Shown piece by piece: positions 21,665 through 59,553 of a stretch of DNA of 64,000 nt; positions within the stretch are counted from its first letter, which is position 1; each line of letters starts with the position of its first letter. Position numbers and translations under genes: made by a program. The DNA comes from a virus (Duplodnaviria > Caudoviricetes), in the IMG/VR virus record IMGVR_UViG_3300016478_000063, positions 24,800-88,799 of that record. One strand, 5' to 3'. The notes beneath the pieces were generated by a model. The model was not told where the DNA came from, made no database searches, and saw only the letters and a program-made list of their open reading frames with translations.

Positions 21665-22330
21665 ATGAAAATTGTTCAAACTGTCGGCATAAACGATGCT
21701 GATTACCCAGTAAGCCAATCAGTGAACGGAAAGAGGCAGATTTGCCCATTTTATAAGGTATGGACGGGTATGCTTACTAGGTGCTATAATCTAAAATTTA
21801 AAGAAAGGCGGCCGACCTATAAAGATTGTACCGTGTGTGAGGAGTGGTTGACATTCTCCACATTCCGTTCATGGATGGAGTCTCAGCCTTGGCAAGGTAT
21901 GCGACTTGACAAGGATTTGACGTTTATGGGCAACACCCACTACAGTCCACACACCTGTGCATTTATCCCAAACTGCATAAATTGTATTTTGGGAACCTGT
22001 AAAGCATCTCGCGGGGAACACCCTGTGGGTGTTTCTAAGGAAAAAATTGCCAAAGATATGGTGAACTACCTCAAAAATCCTTTCAGAGCGGAAGTACAAA
22101 CCTTGAATGGAAAACGAAAGCACTTGGGTATGTACTCCACAGCAGCAGAGGCACACGCTGCATGGCAAAAGGGAAAAATAGATGTTATCCGAGAGTATAT
22201 TTTGTGGTGGGAGTTTGATCCATCTGTTAATCAAACTTTTAATACAACAATCGCTGATAATCTATTAGCTATCGCAGAGAAAATAGAACAAGATTTACGA
22301 AAAGGCGTGGAGACATTATCCTACTTTTGA
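21665..22330 (+). CDS. HNH homing endonuclease (family A), antisense insertion in the lysis cassette
   Basis: TVGINDADY...CPFYKVWTGMLTRCY...RLDKDLTFMGNTHYSPHTCAF. Confidence 0.85.
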   Translation: MKIVQTVGINDADYPVSQSVNGKRQICPFYKVWTGMLTRCYNLKFKERRPTYKDCTVCEEWLTFSTFRSWMESQPWQGMRLDKDLTFMGNTHYSPHTCAFIPNCINCILGTCKASRGEHPVGVSKEKIAKDMVNYLKNPFRAEVQTLNGKRKHLGMYSTAAEAHAAWQKGKIDVIREYILWWEFDPSVNQTFNTTIADNLLAIAEKIEQDLRKGVETLSYF

Positions 22331-40840: not shown

Positions 40841-41353
40841 TTAAAAAATACCACTAACCGCATCACTCACTGTAGAAAGACCATCACCAACAAAAGCTGT
40901 GACTTTATTAAACAGTGAATTTTGTACTTCACTATTACCACCGATGTTCCAATCTGCTTGACTGGATAGGCAATAAATAGTCCAAACACGGTATTCAAAT
41001 TGACCACTAAAGGTGGTCTGTGGAAAGTCAACAATAAACGCTTCATCACTATGAAACAAAGTTGATCCGCTTCCGTCTTTTAGTGTAAGACTAATACGTC
41101 CCGTACCAAGTCTTAAATCTTCTCTGTGAATCTCTGACATTAAGTCGTTGGCATCACCAGTCTGTAGGCAGGAAAATGATATAGTGGCAGATGTATCACT
41201 GTTTTTATAACGAGTGTTCTTGCCCCTAATCCCTCTTACAGCGGTGTAGCCGGGTTGATTCTTTTGTAAAGAGATTGTGTCCCATCCTGACAATGGGTAT
41301 CCACCAAATGTGAGCGTAACTTGTGTGGGACTGTATGTTGCTACATTAAACAT
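40841..41353 (-). CDS. tail tube-like protein (paralog 3)
   Basis: VATYSPTQVTLTFGG; DUF3277-like pattern shared with the two upstream genes. Confidence 0.7.
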   Translation of the reverse strand: MFNVATYSPTQVTLTFGGYPLSGWDTISLQKNQPGYTAVRGIRGKNTRYKNSDTSATISFSCLQTGDANDLMSEIHREDLRLGTGRISLTLKDGSGSTLFHSDEAFIVDFPQTTFSGQFEYRVWTIYCLSSQADWNIGGNSEVQNSLFNKVTAFVGDGLSTVSDAVSGIF

Positions 41354-44830: not shown

Positions 44831-45382
44831 TTATGGAGTTGGTTGTGGGAGTGGAGGGACTGTAATAATCTCACCAGAGTTAACATCGACAATAGATACA
44901 TGTTCCACCCAATCAATCTCTTGTTTGGTGTAAACCATGTATGAAAATGTAACGTCAACATTGAAAAACTCTACCCATTGCGTATCTCGTTTTTGGGGAG
45001 AGCGTCTTAGCCCACTCTTTCGGATTGGAGCCAAGTGATTCTTTTGATACGCTTCTCTTACTACAACACTACCTAAGATAGAGTTGTGAAATTCTGTACC
45101 CATATCTGGAGCATCAGTACCCGCAAAGGTGAACTGAATAACTGCTTCATAATGGTTTTTGTAAATCAGATTCTTCTTTGGAACTGAATCATCTGTGAAT
45201 GTTGCTTCTTCTTTTCTACCAACTTGGTTGATATTTACGATTTGAACTACAACATAGCTTGAAGATGGTTCGGGTGCATTTTGGTGAGAATAGATAACAG
45301 GTGTAGTGCTATATCCTGCTTGCTTTAGAGCTTCAACTGTTCCAAGTCTTACAGCATTTCTCATACTTGAATAAATAGACAT
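44831..45382 (-). CDS. tail terminator/neck protein
   Basis: Position directly upstream of the sheath; IYSHQNAPEP..SYVVVQI. Confidence 0.6.
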   Translation of the reverse strand: MSIYSSMRNAVRLGTVEALKQAGYSTTPVIYSHQNAPEPSSSYVVVQIVNINQVGRKEEATFTDDSVPKKNLIYKNHYEAVIQFTFAGTDAPDMGTEFHNSILGSVVVREAYQKNHLAPIRKSGLRRSPQKRDTQWVEFFNVDVTFSYMVYTKQEIDWVEHVSIVDVNSGEIITVPPLPQPTP

Positions 45383-50333: not shown

Positions 50334-51674
50334 TTATTGTTTTGCGTATTTTTGCTTCAGAAGTACGGCAGTAGCGTTTTCTTCTTTTGGCTCTTCAACT
50401 TCCATCTGCTTGCTCTTCTGAACAAAAAGATCGGATTCTTCTAGTTTTTCTTCTTTTGCTTTCATGCTAGAAACTACCGTCTCAAAAGCAGCATCGGAAA
50501 GAGTGGAGGTTGCTTCAAAAAGAGCAGCCTGTTTTTCAACATCAGCCTCTACAGCCTTAATAGCCTCTTTACGGGCATTAATTTTTTGCTGTTCAGCAGC
50601 AGCTTCTAGAGCTTGTTTTTCTTCTACAACAGCTTTCAGTTGTTCTTGAACTTGACTTAGTTCAGCAGACAGGGAGGCTACTTTTTCTACCTGAGCTTGC
50701 AGCTCAACGCCCTGTTCATTGAATTTTGCTTCAAGTTCGGAGTGCTGCGCTTGCAGTTCCTCAAGTTGTTTCATTTCTACCTCACTATTATCTTTGGTGA
50801 ACCCAAAGAGATTTGTTTTTGACAACATATTGTTTTCCTTCTTGGAAAATTCTGCTTGATAATCCATGAACTCTTCATGAGTCATGACTTTATCAACTAA
50901 GCCAAGAGAGATAGAATCTTTAGCCATAAAGACTTTAGCTTCTGTACTCTTAACCTGATCTACAGGAATATCACGCATCTCGGAGACATACACTGTAAAT
51001 TCTTCATATAGGGAGTCCACCTTACCTTGAATATCAGCAAGAAACTCTTCCCTAAACTCACCTTCCGCATTGAAAGGAACCTTATTCCCACCAGCATAAA
51101 CGAAGGTACGTTCATAGCCTTTTTGTTCTAGTGCCTTACTATCATTAATAAGACGAACAACGACACCAATGCTTCCAACCTCTGCATTAGGGTTTGCAAT
51201 TACTTCATCGGCAATACAAGACAAACCGTAGCAAGCTGAAGCAGAAAGACCATCTACATAAGTAAGAATCTTGATACCAGCTTCGTCTGCGCGTTTACGC
51301 AGATAGCGACCAGTTTCCATCATTCCATATGCTTCTCCACCGCCTGAATCGGCCCAGAGAATCACAGTTTCAGCTCCCATATCAACCATGCTGTTGAATT
51401 GTTCAACAACAGATTCATAAGAGCAACCACCGCAAAGGGCTTCCCATCCAGTAGACTTGTAAGTAATTGGCCCTTCTACAGAGATTGTTCCAACCTTTGT
51501 ATCAGGGTTGTAATTGAGATGCCGTTCTTCTTTTTGTTTTGACTTGGAATCAATAGCCATCTCCCCAACATTACGTTCTGTCAGATATTCAAGAATCCCT
51601 TGAAAACTTACAGGATCAATAAGGTGAGGAGTGTTATTTAATTTCCGAGTCAGCAATTTTAATTCATGTGCCAA
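50334..51674 (-). CDS. S49 prohead protease with C-terminal scaffold domain
   Basis: ADSGGGE, SASACYGL and GSIGVV motifs; coiled-coil C-terminus. Confidence 0.88.
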   Translation of the reverse strand: MAHELKLLTRKLNNTPHLIDPVSFQGILEYLTERNVGEMAIDSKSKQKEERHLNYNPDTKVGTISVEGPITYKSTGWEALCGGCSYESVVEQFNSMVDMGAETVILWADSGGGEAYGMMETGRYLRKRADEAGIKILTYVDGLSASACYGLSCIADEVIANPNAEVGSIGVVVRLINDSKALEQKGYERTFVYAGGNKVPFNAEGEFREEFLADIQGKVDSLYEEFTVYVSEMRDIPVDQVKSTEAKVFMAKDSISLGLVDKVMTHEEFMDYQAEFSKKENNMLSKTNLFGFTKDNSEVEMKQLEELQAQHSELEAKFNEQGVELQAQVEKVASLSAELSQVQEQLKAVVEEKQALEAAAEQQKINARKEAIKAVEADVEKQAALFEATSTLSDAAFETVVSSMKAKEEKLEESDLFVQKSKQMEVEEPKEENATAVLLKQKYAKQ

Positions 51675-53953: not shown

Positions 53954-55429
53954 CTATGCAAAGGGGTTATTTGTTTTTAGAATTGAATCTGATTGCTGGA
54001 GGCCAGTCATGAAGTTGGGGATTTGAACTCTACTTGCCAATGCCATGAAGGCGTCCGAGCAAACATCGACAAGATCGTCGTGACCATTTACACCAGACTT
54101 CCGCTCTCCGGTAAAACCTTCTAACTCGTTGTAGAAGAATTTAAGATCGTTATAAACCTTATTTTCGTAATCTGTACCACAGTTCTTTAAGGTGTTCATC
54201 CCACCATTCATGGTGAATGACGCGAACGGACGAAAACGGTCGATCTTTTTACCTGAAGCCTTCATTGTTCTAACAAAGAAACCTTCTTCTGAGATTTGAC
54301 GAGCCATCATCTGTGTTGCAGCTTTAGCGGCTGGGTTTGGGTCAATAGGTAAAATAATGTCTACCTTGTTACCGTCCCTTCTCGCATTCTCAAGAACAAA
54401 ATCTGCCCATTGACCAAATCTAATTCGGATTCGCTGAACATCATGAATAAAATATTCCCCATTCTTTAGCTTTGATAGCTTGACACAAGTTGTATAATCG
54501 GGGTCATACGTCATATCTTGAGTTTTAATTGTTCCAGCAAAGTCATAAGCCCTAACTGTTTTTACAATATCTGTCCAAGCAGGCTCTTCATCACACTCTC
54601 TAAACCACTCACGCTTAATTAGCCCCTCACCCTCTGGGCGAGCGTCCCAGTTGCCCCATAAAAGTAACTCTTTTTGAATGCGAGGCAAACCTTCAAGAAA
54701 CGCAATATAGCTTGGTTCAATATATGGATTGTCGTAGACGGATGCCGAGATGAACCTGAAAGACAGTGGAGTAGATTTAGGAAACTGTTCAAGAATTTCT
54801 TCTTTACTATTTGCCCAATGTAACTCGTTATCTATACGAACAAACCAACGAATTGCTCCTTGTTTAGAAGGATCAGGTCTGCCATGTAATTCATGGTCAG
54901 GCGGATAAAGATACCAGTCTACATATTTCCTAACCCAACTATTGGCATCAGGGTTCATTGTGGCACGCATGTTCGGCTTCATCTTCGCTTTTGTACGAAG
55001 ACGCGAAAGAATATAGTCAAATTGAGGTTCTTCAAATTGACACAACTCCTCCATTACACAACTGGAAATTTGTGCGCCTTGAAAGTTGTCCGTATCGTCA
55101 ACTCTTTCAAAGTGGGAGAACTGTACTTCACCCCCACTGCTTGCCACGATTTTTAAATCTTTAATTTTAATCCTGCAATTTGGATCAAATTCTTTATAGA
55201 GTTGCTTTGCTTCGTCCCAAACTGCACCGGGCTTTAGTAGCATCGGGGTAGTTCTACGAAGTGTCAACCCCCGGTAAAGGGGGTCGTTGATATATTTAAG
55301 ATGGTGGGCAAGGCCCGCCCAAGTTTTTCCGCCGCCCGCCTGACCCCCGTAGAAACAAATATCTACCCAGTCAGGGGTAGTCAAAAACATTTCTTGGGGC
55401 TTACTGGCAGGTTGGATTACAGCTACCAT
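53954..55429 (-). CDS. terL: terminase large subunit
   Basis: YGGQAGGGKT Walker A; MEELCQF Walker B; RAYDFAG and HDDLVD nuclease motifs; start ATG 55429 coupled to the upstream stop (TAATG). Confidence 0.92.
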   Translation of the reverse strand: MVAVIQPASKPQEMFLTTPDWVDICFYGGQAGGGKTWAGLAHHLKYINDPLYRGLTLRRTTPMLLKPGAVWDEAKQLYKEFDPNCRIKIKDLKIVASSGGEVQFSHFERVDDTDNFQGAQISSCVMEELCQFEEPQFDYILSRLRTKAKMKPNMRATMNPDANSWVRKYVDWYLYPPDHELHGRPDPSKQGAIRWFVRIDNELHWANSKEEILEQFPKSTPLSFRFISASVYDNPYIEPSYIAFLEGLPRIQKELLLWGNWDARPEGEGLIKREWFRECDEEPAWTDIVKTVRAYDFAGTIKTQDMTYDPDYTTCVKLSKLKNGEYFIHDVQRIRIRFGQWADFVLENARRDGNKVDIILPIDPNPAAKAATQMMARQISEEGFFVRTMKASGKKIDRFRPFASFTMNGGMNTLKNCGTDYENKVYNDLKFFYNELEGFTGERKSGVNGHDDLVDVCSDAFMALASRVQIPNFMTGLQQSDSILKTNNPFA

Positions 55430-56451
55430 TAAACCTCCTTCGTGATTTTGTACTCTTCTTCCCAAGAATCGCGTTGAGCTGCTGCTTGTTCAAAAGTTTT
55501 AAACTGCTTAGTAAGATATTTACCGTTCACGTCCATCCGAGCAACATATATCTGCCTACGTTTATCGTATTTCACTCCCACCTTCCCACAAATCCCTTTA
55601 GGTTCTCTTGGAAATTTATACATTGTTTTAGAGGCTTCTACTTTAGTAACCCACATACAATTATCTTTACTGAAATCCCCAAGAGGGTTTAGTCTAATTA
55701 GTTGTAAGTTATCAGGCTTCTCACCCATATCTTCAACAAAATTATCAACTCCATCCTCTCCTAACCACCTTTCGCAAACCTCAATACCGTATTTAACGAA
55801 GTTGTGATTAGATTTGTGGGACTCACTATAACAGCGGTAAAGCATGTTACGGTAGGCTTCGTAAGTTTTTCGGGAGTAGCTCCATTTTCTGTTGGCTTTT
55901 GAAGTCTGATCTTTGTGAAAACAACCACAAGACTTGGTGTCACCTGATTGCAATGCGCCTACCATCACTGATGTTTCGTTACCACAATCACAAACACAGT
56001 CCCATCTGGCTTTTCTTTGACCATTAGGGAAGTGATGCCATGAGTACGTGTCTTTGACTACAAGTCTACCAAATCTCTTACCAGATAGATCAATATGTCT
56101 TGTTTCACCATAACCGGCACCCTCTGTACGAAGTGAGCGTTGGAAAGAATACTCTTCTTTAATCTTTGCAAGAACTTTTGTCGGTAAGAATTTACCATAC
56201 TCTCTTGTATTGGCCATCATGTGAGCGGCGTTTGTTAAACCAAGATGCTTTGGATACGCTTTCCAAAGCAATATATGTGCAATGATATGCTCTCGTGCGG
56301 TAAACATCACAAGATTATCATCTTCATCACTGCCGCCTAAACAGCGTGGAACAATATGATGCTTCTCAAAGTAACCTTCAAGAATAGATTTATCCAAGCC
56401 TCTAACTTTACACTTTTCTACTAATCGGTCATAAACCTTTTTATAATCCAT
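55429..56451 (-). CDS. composite HNH homing endonuclease (intact N-terminal HNH, degenerate second HNH, AP2)
   Basis: EKHHIVPRCLGGSDEDDNLV; DLSGKRFGRL..CDCG..KSCGC..LIRLNPLGDFSKDNCMW; GKVGVKYDKRR. Confidence 0.8.
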   Translation of the reverse strand: MDYKKVYDRLVEKCKVRGLDKSILEGYFEKHHIVPRCLGGSDEDDNLVMFTAREHIIAHILLWKAYPKHLGLTNAAHMMANTREYGKFLPTKVLAKIKEEYSFQRSLRTEGAGYGETRHIDLSGKRFGRLVVKDTYSWHHFPNGQRKARWDCVCDCGNETSVMVGALQSGDTKSCGCFHKDQTSKANRKWSYSRKTYEAYRNMLYRCYSESHKSNHNFVKYGIEVCERWLGEDGVDNFVEDMGEKPDNLQLIRLNPLGDFSKDNCMWVTKVEASKTMYKFPREPKGICGKVGVKYDKRRQIYVARMDVNGKYLTKQFKTFEQAAAQRDSWEEEYKITKEV

Positions 56452-56454
56452 TTT

Positions 56455-56475
56455 CACTCCTAAATAAAAGGAGTG
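56455..56475 (-). promoter_or_regulatory. SD-sequestering hairpin of the HNH gene
   Basis: CACTCCT-TTTATTT-AGGAGTG perfect 7-bp stem burying AGGAG, 3 nt before ATG. Confidence 0.75.
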
Positions 56476-56756
56476 CCCCAACCTGCGTAGCCGTCAAGAC
56501 AACTCTATAGCAGGAATTACGGGTTCACAAAACTAAATTAAACAGAGCGTCATCACGACGAGTCTAATTCTTTTCAGACTTAACGTCTATTCTTCCCAAA
56601 AGAAAGCTCCACGCTTTCTCTCATTCAATAAAAACAGTATATCAAAAATTCATTAGCTGAAGCAAGCTTTTTGAAAATAAATATGAAATAATCTTAAGCG
56701 ATGATCCTCACAAAGAAGATCATCTATAAAACTACTTACTATATTTACGAAGGATT

Positions 56757-57246: not shown

Positions 57247-57882
57247 TCAGCTAATATCTTTGAAAGGGTTGATTTCAAGTGTCCATCCCTTCCAATAATC
57301 ATACTCATCAGATTCAACAACATTGTTGTGTTCAAGGCGAATCTTGTTACCAATCTGAACCACCAAACCTCTGTCAGAATCTTTATATCGTTTAACAATG
57401 TACAATTGGTAACGTGGGAGCCAACCATCTTTAGGAGTGGCTTTCAGTAGTTGCCAACCAGCATTATCAAAATCATCTCGTACATAATCTTGTCCAGCCA
57501 GCTTTGTGATCGTGTATTTACGTACATCACAACCAAGGACAAATCTCTTAAAGTTGTTGAATGGATTGCGAACCGCCATCCACCAAAACCTATTTAAAGG
57601 CTTTCTGCTATCTGCACCAAAACTGTTTGCATCCCACCAACCACGATGATCGCCAGTAGATGAATCTTCAAGGTTATCCCAAGGCCAGAATACTTTAGGA
57701 AACACCTCTCTAATCCATTTACGATTGGTATTGTACATTGTGAAGTGTTTGGCGGATTCAGGATCATATTTTCCAAGTAGGAGCATGATAGGGACTACCA
57801 AGAATCCTAACAAAATACCGCATACTTGAAGGACAAAGAACAAGATAGTAGTTACTGCGAATACAACAACTTCTTTAAACAC
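57247..57882 (-). CDS. membrane-anchored Trp-rich phage protein
   Basis: N-terminal TM; FWPWDN...WMAVRNP.NN pattern. Confidence 0.6.
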   Translation of the reverse strand: MFKEVVVFAVTTILFFVLQVCGILLGFLVVPIMLLLGKYDPESAKHFTMYNTNRKWIREVFPKVFWPWDNLEDSSTGDHRGWWDANSFGADSRKPLNRFWWMAVRNPFNNFKRFVLGCDVRKYTITKLAGQDYVRDDFDNAGWQLLKATPKDGWLPRYQLYIVKRYKDSDRGLVVQIGNKIRLEHNNVVESDEYDYWKGWTLEINPFKDIS

Positions 57883-58292
57883 TATTCTTTATCCTTCTTA
57901 ACAGCATCGTTGACGAACAGAGAGAACACAGCACCATTCGGTTGTTTTTCCTGCTCTTCTTTCTCAGCTTCTTCTGCTTCAATAGCGTCACCCTTCCAAC
58001 GAAGACCGTTCATCTCTGCTTCGTCAACAGCGGCAGCCTTGGTAAAGCTGATAAGGTTGTTCAGCACCCATTTTGCAGTCTGGAGTGATTCCCGGTCTAC
58101 GGCTTCCTCTTTTACTGACTTCTCAACCAGAGCCAGTGAATGAGGCTCAAGTTCTTGCAACTTAACCAAAGTCTTACGCAGGGCTGATTTTTTAATACGC
58201 TTTTTACGCTGATTTTGATTATCGGCTGCCAAAGTATTACCTTTCTCAAACCTGTGCGTCGGATTCGGATTACCCTTGGGCATAATTTTCAT
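57882..58292 (-). CDS. terS: terminase small subunit (putative)
   Basis: RFEKGN N-terminal motif, helical body, upstream of terL. Confidence 0.55.
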   Translation of the reverse strand: MKIMPKGNPNPTHRFEKGNTLAADNQNQRKKRIKKSALRKTLVKLQELEPHSLALVEKSVKEEAVDRESLQTAKWVLNNLISFTKAAAVDEAEMNGLRWKGDAIEAEEAEKEEQEKQPNGAVFSLFVNDAVKKDKE

Positions 58293-58896
58293 ACCTCTTA
58301 ATTATAGCTTCTGAAATACATCTATCAGATTCTAGGCGTGCAAACTCATAAGCCAGTTCCAATTTTCTTGAAAGCCAAGCTTCATGTGCTGATAGTGGAT
58401 CACGAAAATTCCCCAAGAACTCCCTCTTTCCACTAAAAGGGTTGGAAATCTTAGCATCAAACATGTTCTTTTTATTATGGAAGCTAACACCTATTGGCCA
58501 CTCTCCCCTTAGCGCAGACCTCTCTGTCATAAAAGAGTTTAACTTTTTACTGATAAACACGCATGTTTCTGGGGAGTAATGTTTGTTGCCTCTGAGTAAC
58601 AAATCTTTATCTAAGTACTTACCTTGCCAATCTTGTTGTTCCATCCAAGCTTTGAAGTTACTAAAAGTTAGCCACTCTTCGCAGACAGTGCAATCTTTAT
58701 AGGATGGTTTAGTTTTATGGTACTTGTCAGAATAGCATCTTTCAAGCATGCTTGCCCACTTATTATAGAATGGACATACAGCATTTTTCTTATTTGTTAC
58801 AACCTCAGATAAATGTGATTCACCATGAACATGGTAGTCTGCATCATTTATACCAACACCATAAACTAATTTAGTTTTCTTATAGACCTTCTTCAT
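58270..58896 (-). CDS. free-standing HNH homing endonuclease (family A)
   Basis: YGVGINDADY...CPFYNKWASMLERCY...YLDKDLLLRGNKHYSPETCVF. Confidence 0.83.
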   Translation of the reverse strand: MKKVYKKTKLVYGVGINDADYHVHGESHLSEVVTNKKNAVCPFYNKWASMLERCYSDKYHKTKPSYKDCTVCEEWLTFSNFKAWMEQQDWQGKYLDKDLLLRGNKHYSPETCVFISKKLNSFMTERSALRGEWPIGVSFHNKKNMFDAKISNPFSGKREFLGNFRDPLSAHEAWLSRKLELAYEFARLESDRCISEAIIKRYENYAQG

Positions 58897-59050
58897 TTTA
58901 AAACCTCTATAGTCAAATTACTCAATGTCGCAACAGGGACATGCAACAAACCCTACAAAGAGTAATTTGCTATAAAAGTCTTACTGTCGCTTGTTTCTAA
59001 AGGCTGTTGCGCAGCCTGTGTAAAGCATTTCTGCTTTCTATAATCAACTC

Positions 59051-59225
59051 AAAAGAATTAACTATAGAAAGCATCCTATCAGATCAATAGGTGAACAAGG
59101 ATGCTTAATGATAGCCCAACAGACAGGAGGAATCCGTAGGACTACCGAGGATGCAGATGAAGGAGAGAACATCTGCGAGGAGAAACTTAATTCTAAAAAT
59201 TCACAAGCTCTGTATATAGCTTGCA
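59051..59225. ncRNA. candidate small RNA with seven AGGA motifs (strand unresolved)
   Basis: AGGA with GGA at 59099, 59126, 59129, 59139, 59149, 59162 and 59179; closed by an AGAATTAA/TTAATTCT helix. Confidence 0.45.
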
Positions 59226-59229
59226 ATAT

Positions 59230-59257
59230 ATTATACGCGATTTATTTTTATTTGCAA
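59230..59257 (-). promoter_or_regulatory. sigma70-like promoter heading the packaging/morphogenesis operon
   Basis: TTGCAA-16 bp-TATAAT. Confidence 0.6.
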
Positions 59258-59264
59258 CAATTAT

Positions 59265-59471
59265 TTAGTCATTTAGTGGTTTTGCTGGTGTAACTTCTCT
59301 CGAAAAGGGCACTTCAGTAATATCTTCAAGCTGATAAGACCTATAATCGCAAAATTCAGGTTCATCAATAAAAGGCTGACAAGACCAACAAATATCATTC
59401 ATTGATCCGTCAGGAAGATCAAAACTCATCTCACCACGAGTAAGCACAACACCACAACAGGAACATCTCAT
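59265..59471 (-). CDS. small Zn-finger protein
   Basis: CSCC...CWSC. Confidence 0.55.
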   Translation of the reverse strand: MRCSCCGVVLTRGEMSFDLPDGSMNDICWSCQPFIDEPEFCDYRSYQLEDITEVPFSREVTPAKPLND

Positions 59472-59553
59472 AAAACACCTTTCTTGTTTTTGTTATTAAG
59501 TAAGACACAGTGTACCACAACAATAGGTACCTATGTCAACCCCTAAGCAAAAT

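Follow-up and report, generated by a model that had tools for sequence, protein, structure and literature searches.

What produces the dense run of AGGA words in the 368-nt gap at 58897-59264, and on which strand is it read? The window, meaning the whole 64-kb stretch of DNA analysed here, is the final part of an 88.8-kb IMG/VR phage record, whose large terminase shows 40-46% identity to those of the Pseudomonas phages vB_PsaM_M1 (Ounavirinae), phiPMW, and PAK_P5; the gap lies in a 39-kb block of minus-strand genes. A preliminary description of the sequence had proposed either a plus-strand RNA acting as an RsmA/CsrA sponge, or a minus-strand RNA whose loops occlude ribosome-binding sites.

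The AGGA cluster itself was confirmed, with seven words in 84 nt (59098-59181; starts at 59098, 59125, 59128, 59138, 59148, 59161, and 59178) against about 0.36 expected from the density of 4.27 per kb across the window. It is unique in the 64 kb, all other 84-nt stretches having at most four AGGA or at most four TCCT on both strands. Five of the seven words are the complements of unpaired CU-rich motifs in a minus-strand RNA, and the remaining two fall in the H4 stem (59098) and the H3 stem (59138) of the same RNA. The motif spacing in the window is 10-17 nt, and about 10 bp for three motifs. On comparative sequence grounds, the AGGA run is complementary to a conserved RNA fold encoded on the minus strand; a sequence that looks like a GGA-rich sponge can thus reflect an RNA of the opposite strand. 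The features of the locus are collected in Table 1.

The gene that ancestrally followed the leader probably encodes the small terminase (terS). Family searches with its protein gave no match, and the role was assigned because of its position upstream of the large terminase and its basic N-terminus; 29 relatives were found in a large protein collection, and translation probably begins at the ATG at 58283 (MPKGNPNP). The ORF adjoining the leader promoter is Cys-rich (CSCC...CWSC) and zinc-ribbon-like. Most homologous loci have an ORF of 67-68 aa at the same position, and in one of them (L002) the 67-aa ORF found there is unrelated.

Table 1. Features of the terS leader and of the neighbouring genes, in window coordinates
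Feature	Position	Strand	Remark
Large terminase	53954-55465	-	phrog_979, E = 4e-153
Probable small terminase (terS)	57882-58292	-	inferred assignment; ancestral first gene after the leader
HNH homing endonuclease	58270-58896	-	phrog_953, E = 4e-88; between leader and terS
5' untranslated region travelling with the HNH cassette	58897-59026	-	not the ancestral leader
H5, GCUUUCUAUAG...CUAUAGAAAGC	59033-59072	-	5' arm overlaps the H4 3' arm by 4 nt
H4, stem AAGCAUCCU/AGGAUGCUU	59069-59106	-	conserved UCAUUA before it
H3, long imperfect stem	59110-59146	-	loop UCCUCCU (59125-59131; AUUCCUCCUGU including flanks)
Linker AUCCUC	59147-59152	-	stand-in for M2
H2, stem GCAGAUG/CAUCUGC	59153-59176	-	10-nt loop UUCUCUCCUU (59160-59169)
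M1, single-stranded UUUCUCCUC	59177-59185	-	anti-SD-like motif 1; unpaired in the core minimum-energy fold
H0, 5'-terminal hairpin GCAAGCU...AGCUUGU, then AUUUUUAG	59201-59226	-	
Sigma70-type promoter TTGCAA-N16-TATAAT	59230-59257	-	transcription start inferred near 59223
68-aa ORF	59265-59471	-	adjoins the leader promoter on its upstream side

A conserved minus-strand fold before terS

In addition to the window, 14 loci, all from uncultured relatives, yielded 12 distinct homologous elements (loci are given below as L numbers). They come from one IMG/VR relative, from the contigs of terS protein relatives, and from a metagenome pattern scan, in which two of 11 matches were true (L070 and L074). 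Wherever a locus reaches far enough upstream, the element lies on the gene-sense strand before terS, either directly or with an HNH gene between. The comparison of these loci establishes an element with a defined strand, fold, and promoter, with invariant motifs and a fixed place before terS.

The element family appears, on present evidence, to be confined to this clade of uncultured phages, since no member was detected among the tested IMG/VR and prokaryote-genome matches or in phage vB_PsaM_M1. A covariance model built from the homologue sequences (R1) re-finds all members at 89-160 bits and detects a single copy in the phage's own genome; whole-record searches with it were negative for Pseudomonas phage vB_PsaM_M1 and for three IMG/VR phages. 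The first IMG/VR pattern scan gave 51 matches, all of them chance except the already known L002, the second gave zero matches, and the third gave at least 119, with R1 matching none of the 79 new loci listed. The scan of prokaryote genomes gave 67 matches and no member, two matches reaching only 18 bits against at least 89 for true members. The intergenic region had no blastn match in 50,697 phage records, and Rfam 15 (cmscan of 58700-59500, both strands, E up to 10) returned six chance matches to eukaryotic miRNA and snoRNA models.

Each folded alone, all homologues give the same minimum-energy architecture. The order from the 5' end is single-stranded UUUCUCCU (M1), the optional hairpin H1, the linker AUCCUCC (M2), H2 with the loop CUCUCCU, H3 with the loop CCUCCU, then H4, entered via the conserved UCAUUAAGC, and H5. 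M1 is kept as UUUCUCCU in 11 of the 12 distinct homologues and reads UUUCUCU in L062, and M2 (AUCCUCC or CUCCUCCC) is located upstream of H2 in the homologues having the extra hairpin H1. Several homologues have a hairpin at the position of H0, with variable sequence and with the U-run not kept.

The helices are rewritten between homologues with their pairing retained. H2 is the hairpin that the preliminary description had read on the opposite strand as GCAGATG-AAGGAGAGAA-CATCTGC; it exists, its stem varies to GCAAGUG, GUAGACG, GUAAGCG, and GCAAACG, and its loop always has CUCCU. The H3 stems are unrelated in sequence yet always paired, with both-side changes in 11 of 15 pairs, up to six G.U pairs in one homologue, and a loop that always has CCUCCU. 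In H4, 99% of the cells are paired, through the compensatory variants AAGCUCUCU/AGAGAGCUU, AAGCUCC/GGGAGCUU, AAACCCC/GGGGGUUU, and AAACUCUCU/AGAGAGUUU, and a 3-bp inner hairpin UCA/UGA, reversed to UGA/UCA in L065 and L081, lies inside the conserved 20-nt loop. The conservation of H4 and its loop exceeds what the pairing model would demand, which hints at contact with a protein or at a tertiary contact outside the current model.

H5 has a second sequence type, unrelated in sequence but of the same shape, in L060, L061, L074, and L080, and its base GCUUUCU/AGAAAGC is kept even with a tRNA gene or other inserts in the apex. The scan of 58700-59500 detected no terminator after H5. For the window, the folding also predicts a closing helix GUUUCU/AGAAAU, which was discarded, as it is not kept in all homologues. 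The closure of the domain by AGAATTAA/TTAATTCT, as first described, is not conserved either, and TTAATTCT belongs to H5.

Covariation was scored on a model-based alignment, in which 25 of 41 pairs have changes on both sides, and 86.8% of the cells are paired, compared with 36-45% when the partners are slid; none of 500 shuffles reached the observed covariation score. This alignment misregisters H2 in some rows, producing false 'other' and A.C cells, so the figures are conservative, and the strand test was redone on the per-sequence folds. RNAalifold on the raw MAFFT alignment recovered H4 only; the loops and H3 were misaligned there, and the structure was therefore taken from single-sequence folds.

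Folding of 59027-59224 (198 nt) gives -69.0 kcal/mol (z = -7.06) as minus-strand RNA and -46.3 kcal/mol (z = -2.2), 23 kcal/mol worse, as plus-strand RNA. Inside the helices of the per-sequence folds there are 46 G.U pairs and not one A.C mismatch; read on the plus strand, the G.U pairs would become A.C mismatches, which favours the minus strand. The minus-strand promoter suggested earlier holds, with 10 of 12 consensus matches, and in 10 of the 14 homologous loci (script criteria) a near-consensus promoter precedes the first CU motif by 30-76 nt, the other four having, by eye, TTGACA-N17-TATATA or TTGCAT-N17-TAGTAT. The plus-strand TATAAT at 59039-59044, previously taken as a promoter element, is present, but it is the sequence of the H5 3' arm and varies among homologues. 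No plus-strand promoter or terminator was detected in 58700-59500, and none is conserved among the homologues. Judged from these sequence comparisons, the functional strand is the minus, gene-sense strand.

A 61-aa ATG ORF (59108-59293, plus strand) runs antisense to the element, and its counterpart in L060 (2714-2899) was called by a gene caller. The other homologues do not keep this ORF, and it is thus probably spurious.

Exposed anti-Shine-Dalgarno words and their possible partners

The unpaired UCCU words of the window RNA are located in M1 (UUUCUCCUC), the H2 loop (UUCUCUCCUU), the linker AUCCUC, and the H3 loop (AUUCCUCCUGU), the last holding two overlapping copies. CUCCU or CCUCC is present in the H2 and H3 loops of all homologues, with the adjoining stems rewritten, and in the 5' linker of all except L062, which has CUCCUCCC in its M2 linker. 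The total UCCU count per homologue is 4-7, and the predicted unpaired probability of the loop motifs, including CUCC of the H2 loop, is about 1.0. CUCCUUA (in L059 and L065) and CCUCCU are the 3'-terminal words of 16S rRNA, and the ribosome-binding sites of the phage are strong AAGGAG, AGGAGG, or GAGG. The minus-strand alternative of the preliminary description gains support from the 12 distinct homologues in its strand, promoter, fold, and unpaired CUCCU invariance, and the earlier interpretation as a whole is partly supported.

The best explanation overall, to which we give about an even chance, is a structured minus-strand leader acting through anti-SD:SD pairing. A sigma70-type promoter would give rise to a structured RNA of about 190 nt (from about 59223 to 59033) as the 5' leader of the packaging operon, which would ancestrally have begun with terS, the HNH homing-endonuclease gene being inserted between them later. 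With its four or five hairpins, the RNA would leave the anti-Shine-Dalgarno core CUCCU/CCUCC unpaired three to four times, twice in a hairpin loop and once or twice in a linker, and these motifs most likely base-pair with AGGAG-type ribosome-binding sites. The pairing could take place in cis, with the ribosome-binding site following the leader, or in trans, if the leader domain is separated from the message and pairs with AAGGAG(A) sites of phage or host messages; by either route, translation would be damped. That the element is made as RNA, which partners its motifs pair with, and that its loops occlude ribosome-binding sites are inferences, and the RNA probably controls translation.

Regarding the cis route, leader folds that start shortly before the promoter -10 box predict pairing of the terS SD with CCUC of M1 or of the AUCCUC(C) linker in five of the six HNH-less homologues, not in L061, the predicted pairing being only 4-5 bp. 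With 300 nt of upstream context, the terS SD has an unpaired probability of 0.09-0.55, and the genome-wide median is 0.36. The cis sequestration of the terS SD, strong in the shorter fold, is therefore not exceptional relative to the genome-wide distribution.

An RBS module (G)GAGGAAUCCUAA-AUG, or a close variant (AAGGAAUCCUAA, AGAGGAUUCCUAA), is common to several genes, namely 40841-41353, 44831-45382, and 50334-51674 on the minus strand and 21665-22330 on the plus strand. Before the genes 40841-41353 and 50334-51674, GGAGGAAUCC is the 10-nt complement of GGAUUCCUCC, the H3 loop with its adjoining stem in the window; loop-flank variants elsewhere are UUGCCCUCCUC or UAAUUCCUCCUCC. This complementarity could be a specific target or a coincidence.

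The unpaired pyrimidine motifs could also be a platform for protein loading and not a pairing surface, either as a strong Rho utilisation site, causing attenuation in the untranslated leader that a phage factor, or translation itself, would lift, or as a site for ribosomal protein S1 that would serve terS as a standby site or an enhancer of translation. Rho recognises YC dinucleotides through its primary sites and binds poly(UC) well; the unpaired positions here are 76-91% C+U and 3-7% G, overall C (26-31%) exceeds G (14-18%), the leader is untranslated over about 190-270 nt, and its motifs follow each other at the 10-17-nt spacing given above. Generic pyrimidine tracts would, however, suffice for Rho or S1, whereas in this element a word of 5-6 nt, CUCCU/CCUCC, is invariant at three to four places and identical to the core of the 16S rRNA 3' tail. 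Known rut sites show little conservation and no structure; such a site would be expected to span about 80 nt that are C-rich, G-poor, and largely unstructured, and the element has more C than G but is tightly folded (z about -7). We regard a Rho or S1 platform as unlikely on balance.

Less probable still, and improbable in our view, is a leader that serves only in mRNA stabilisation or processing, with CU motifs lacking a specific partner. The 5' hairpin H0 at the predicted start is in keeping with it, as is the tRNA gene embedded in H5 in one lineage, which implies processing, but a protective structure alone would not keep one pentamer unpaired at three to four places while the stems change.

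The words CTCCT/AGGAG could instead act in DNA, for instance as an array of small-terminase (pac) or other protein sites. Pac sites are often found in or near terS, and the element is located immediately upstream of terS with a spacing of about 10 bp for three motifs in the window. The compensatory changes, together with G.U pairs on one strand only, show selection on an RNA fold, and the motif spacing varies among homologues, the presence or absence of H1 shifting it by 25 nt, which leaves a DNA-site array very improbable. The least credible reading, with hardly any probability left, is the plus-strand GGA-rich RNA sponging CsrA/RsmA, in which GGA would occupy hairpin loops and linkers as in RsmY, RsmZ, and CsrB, and for which the GGA positions are indeed kept in relatives, as the complement of the conserved UCC; the fold energies, the G.U pairs, and the promoter all favour the minus strand, and Rfam at E up to 10 gave no Csr/Rsm family.

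Relation to known regulatory RNAs

The preferred reading, a leader with several anti-SD words, has counterparts among known RNAs. The cuckoo/alpha-r14 sRNAs, comprising CcsR1-4 of Rhodobacter and NfeR1 and relatives of Sinorhizobium, form a modular row of hairpins with highly variable, covarying stems, in which a C/U-rich anti-SD loop motif, thought to occlude ribosome-binding sites, is alone in being strongly conserved (PMC4615179). H2 and H3 of the element similarly have variable covarying stems with a conserved C/U-rich loop motif. The loop sequences differ, being CCUCCUCCC in every cuckoo hairpin and CUCUCCU and CCUCCU in the element; in place of two to four adjacent hairpins each with CCUCCUCCC, the element has H1, H4, and H5 without the motif, two further conserved hairpins among them, and no Rfam match. 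Its CUCCUCCC is found in three homologues and only as a linker, whereas the cuckoo motif is a loop. In addition, the cuckoo RNAs are stand-alone alphaproteobacterial sRNAs, while the element forms the leader of a phage mRNA, is continuous with terS, and lacks a terminator.

In the C/U-rich multi-site sRNAs of Bacillota (RsaE/RoxS, RNAIII hairpins, LhrC), redundant unpaired sites located in loops and linkers pair with SD regions (PMC4615179). These RNAs are chromosomal, trans-acting, and terminator-ended, with the motif UCCC/CCCC, and have no homology to the element. The likeness to CsrB/RsmY/RsmZ is confined to the complement of the element, which would show GGA in loops and linkers; that GGA strand is not the one supported by the fold or the promoter, and there is no family match.

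In c4 of phages P1 and P7, which processing releases from its transcript, exposed segments pair with the ribosome-binding region of a downstream gene on that transcript. Anti-SD:SD pairing is thought to be the mode of action of the leader-derived c4 RNA of P1 (Citron and Schuster 1992, PMC312442, as cited in PMC8546580). Both c4 and the element are phage-encoded and come from the leader of their own operon. They differ in that c4 is a 77-nt RNA with two target-matched segments in a temperate-phage immunity operon, while the element has about 190 nt and three to four generic anti-SD words before the packaging genes of an Ounavirinae-like phage; the c4 covariance model RF01695 had no match in the cmscan of 58700-59500. 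As to pairing with a ribosome-binding site, the leader position is shared, and the predicted CCUC:GAGG pairing with the terS SD has 4-5 bp at ordinary SD accessibility. The only hint of a c4-like release by processing is the tRNA-Ile gene between the CU domain and terS in L065.

The best-supported reading, by analogy, is that the element works like the multi-anti-SD RNAs and yet lies outside the cuckoo, c4, and Csr/Rsm families, since no model matches and the motif, context, and strand differ. Multi-anti-SD RNAs are already known on bacterial chromosomes, c4 being the phage case; in Rfam 15 and the literature, we found no described family of structured leaders showing the ribosome docking sequence before phage packaging genes. 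The comparative support for the element is unusually clear, and its design is simple, with three to four identical exposed words on a rewritable scaffold. If the control of translation is true, it would give a lytic phage a compact, protein-free means of timing or limiting protein synthesis, and would be a ready-made part for synthetic RBS control.

Insertions around the leader

The HNH cassette of the window (58270-59026) includes a conserved 130-nt untranslated region and sits exactly between H5 and the terS RBS; in L058, L059, and L062, different HNH ORFs follow this untranslated region. The stretch 58897-59026 is missing from L060, L061, L063, L070, L074, and L080, in which H5 is followed by AAUUGAGGUAA-ATG of terS. 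L070 is 97% identical to the window from 59600 to 59032 and then continues without the HNH gene (L070:2434-2600, minus strand, was compared with the cassette site of the window), and its terS is about 72% identical to that of the window, as expected for a co-conversion tract. HNH genes are located upstream of the element's promoter in L002, L062, and L081 and just after the last hairpin in the window, L058, L059, and L062; because they sit at differing sides of it, the element does not belong to the mobile cassette.

The SD of the HNH gene (UAGAGGUU, 58897-58925) has a predicted unpaired probability of 0.002, the second lowest of 77 genes. Such near-full predicted pairing fits a tight translational limitation of the homing endonuclease.

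The apex of H5 holds a tRNA-Ile(GAU) gene in L065 (349-421) and also in L066, between the CU-motif domain and terS, and other inserts of 75-100 nt in L002, L081, and L078. The inserts are thus found after H5 (the HNH cassette) and in the H5 apex, never inside M1-H4, suggesting that the CU-motif domain works as an autonomous module. The tolerance of insertions also suggests an action of the leader domain in trans, and processing of the tRNA-Ile in L065 would sever the CU domain from terS. Against the trans route, the RNA has no evident target specificity, because most ribosome-binding sites of the phage, and presumably of the host, are complementary to it. A more speculative extension, which we consider doubtful, is that the leader cut from its message is a multivalent mimic of the 16S rRNA 3' tail, which after the onset of late transcription would compete with ribosomes for the AAGGAG-type sites of early phage and host messages, and that it belongs to a broader class, so far undescribed, of leader RNAs with anti-ribosome-site motifs in front of phage packaging genes.

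Another HNH/homing endonuclease gene (55429-56481, minus strand) immediately precedes the large terminase gene, with which it overlaps. The same HNH/large-terminase arrangement is present in Pseudomonas phage vB_PsaM_M1 (L085:4100-4996).
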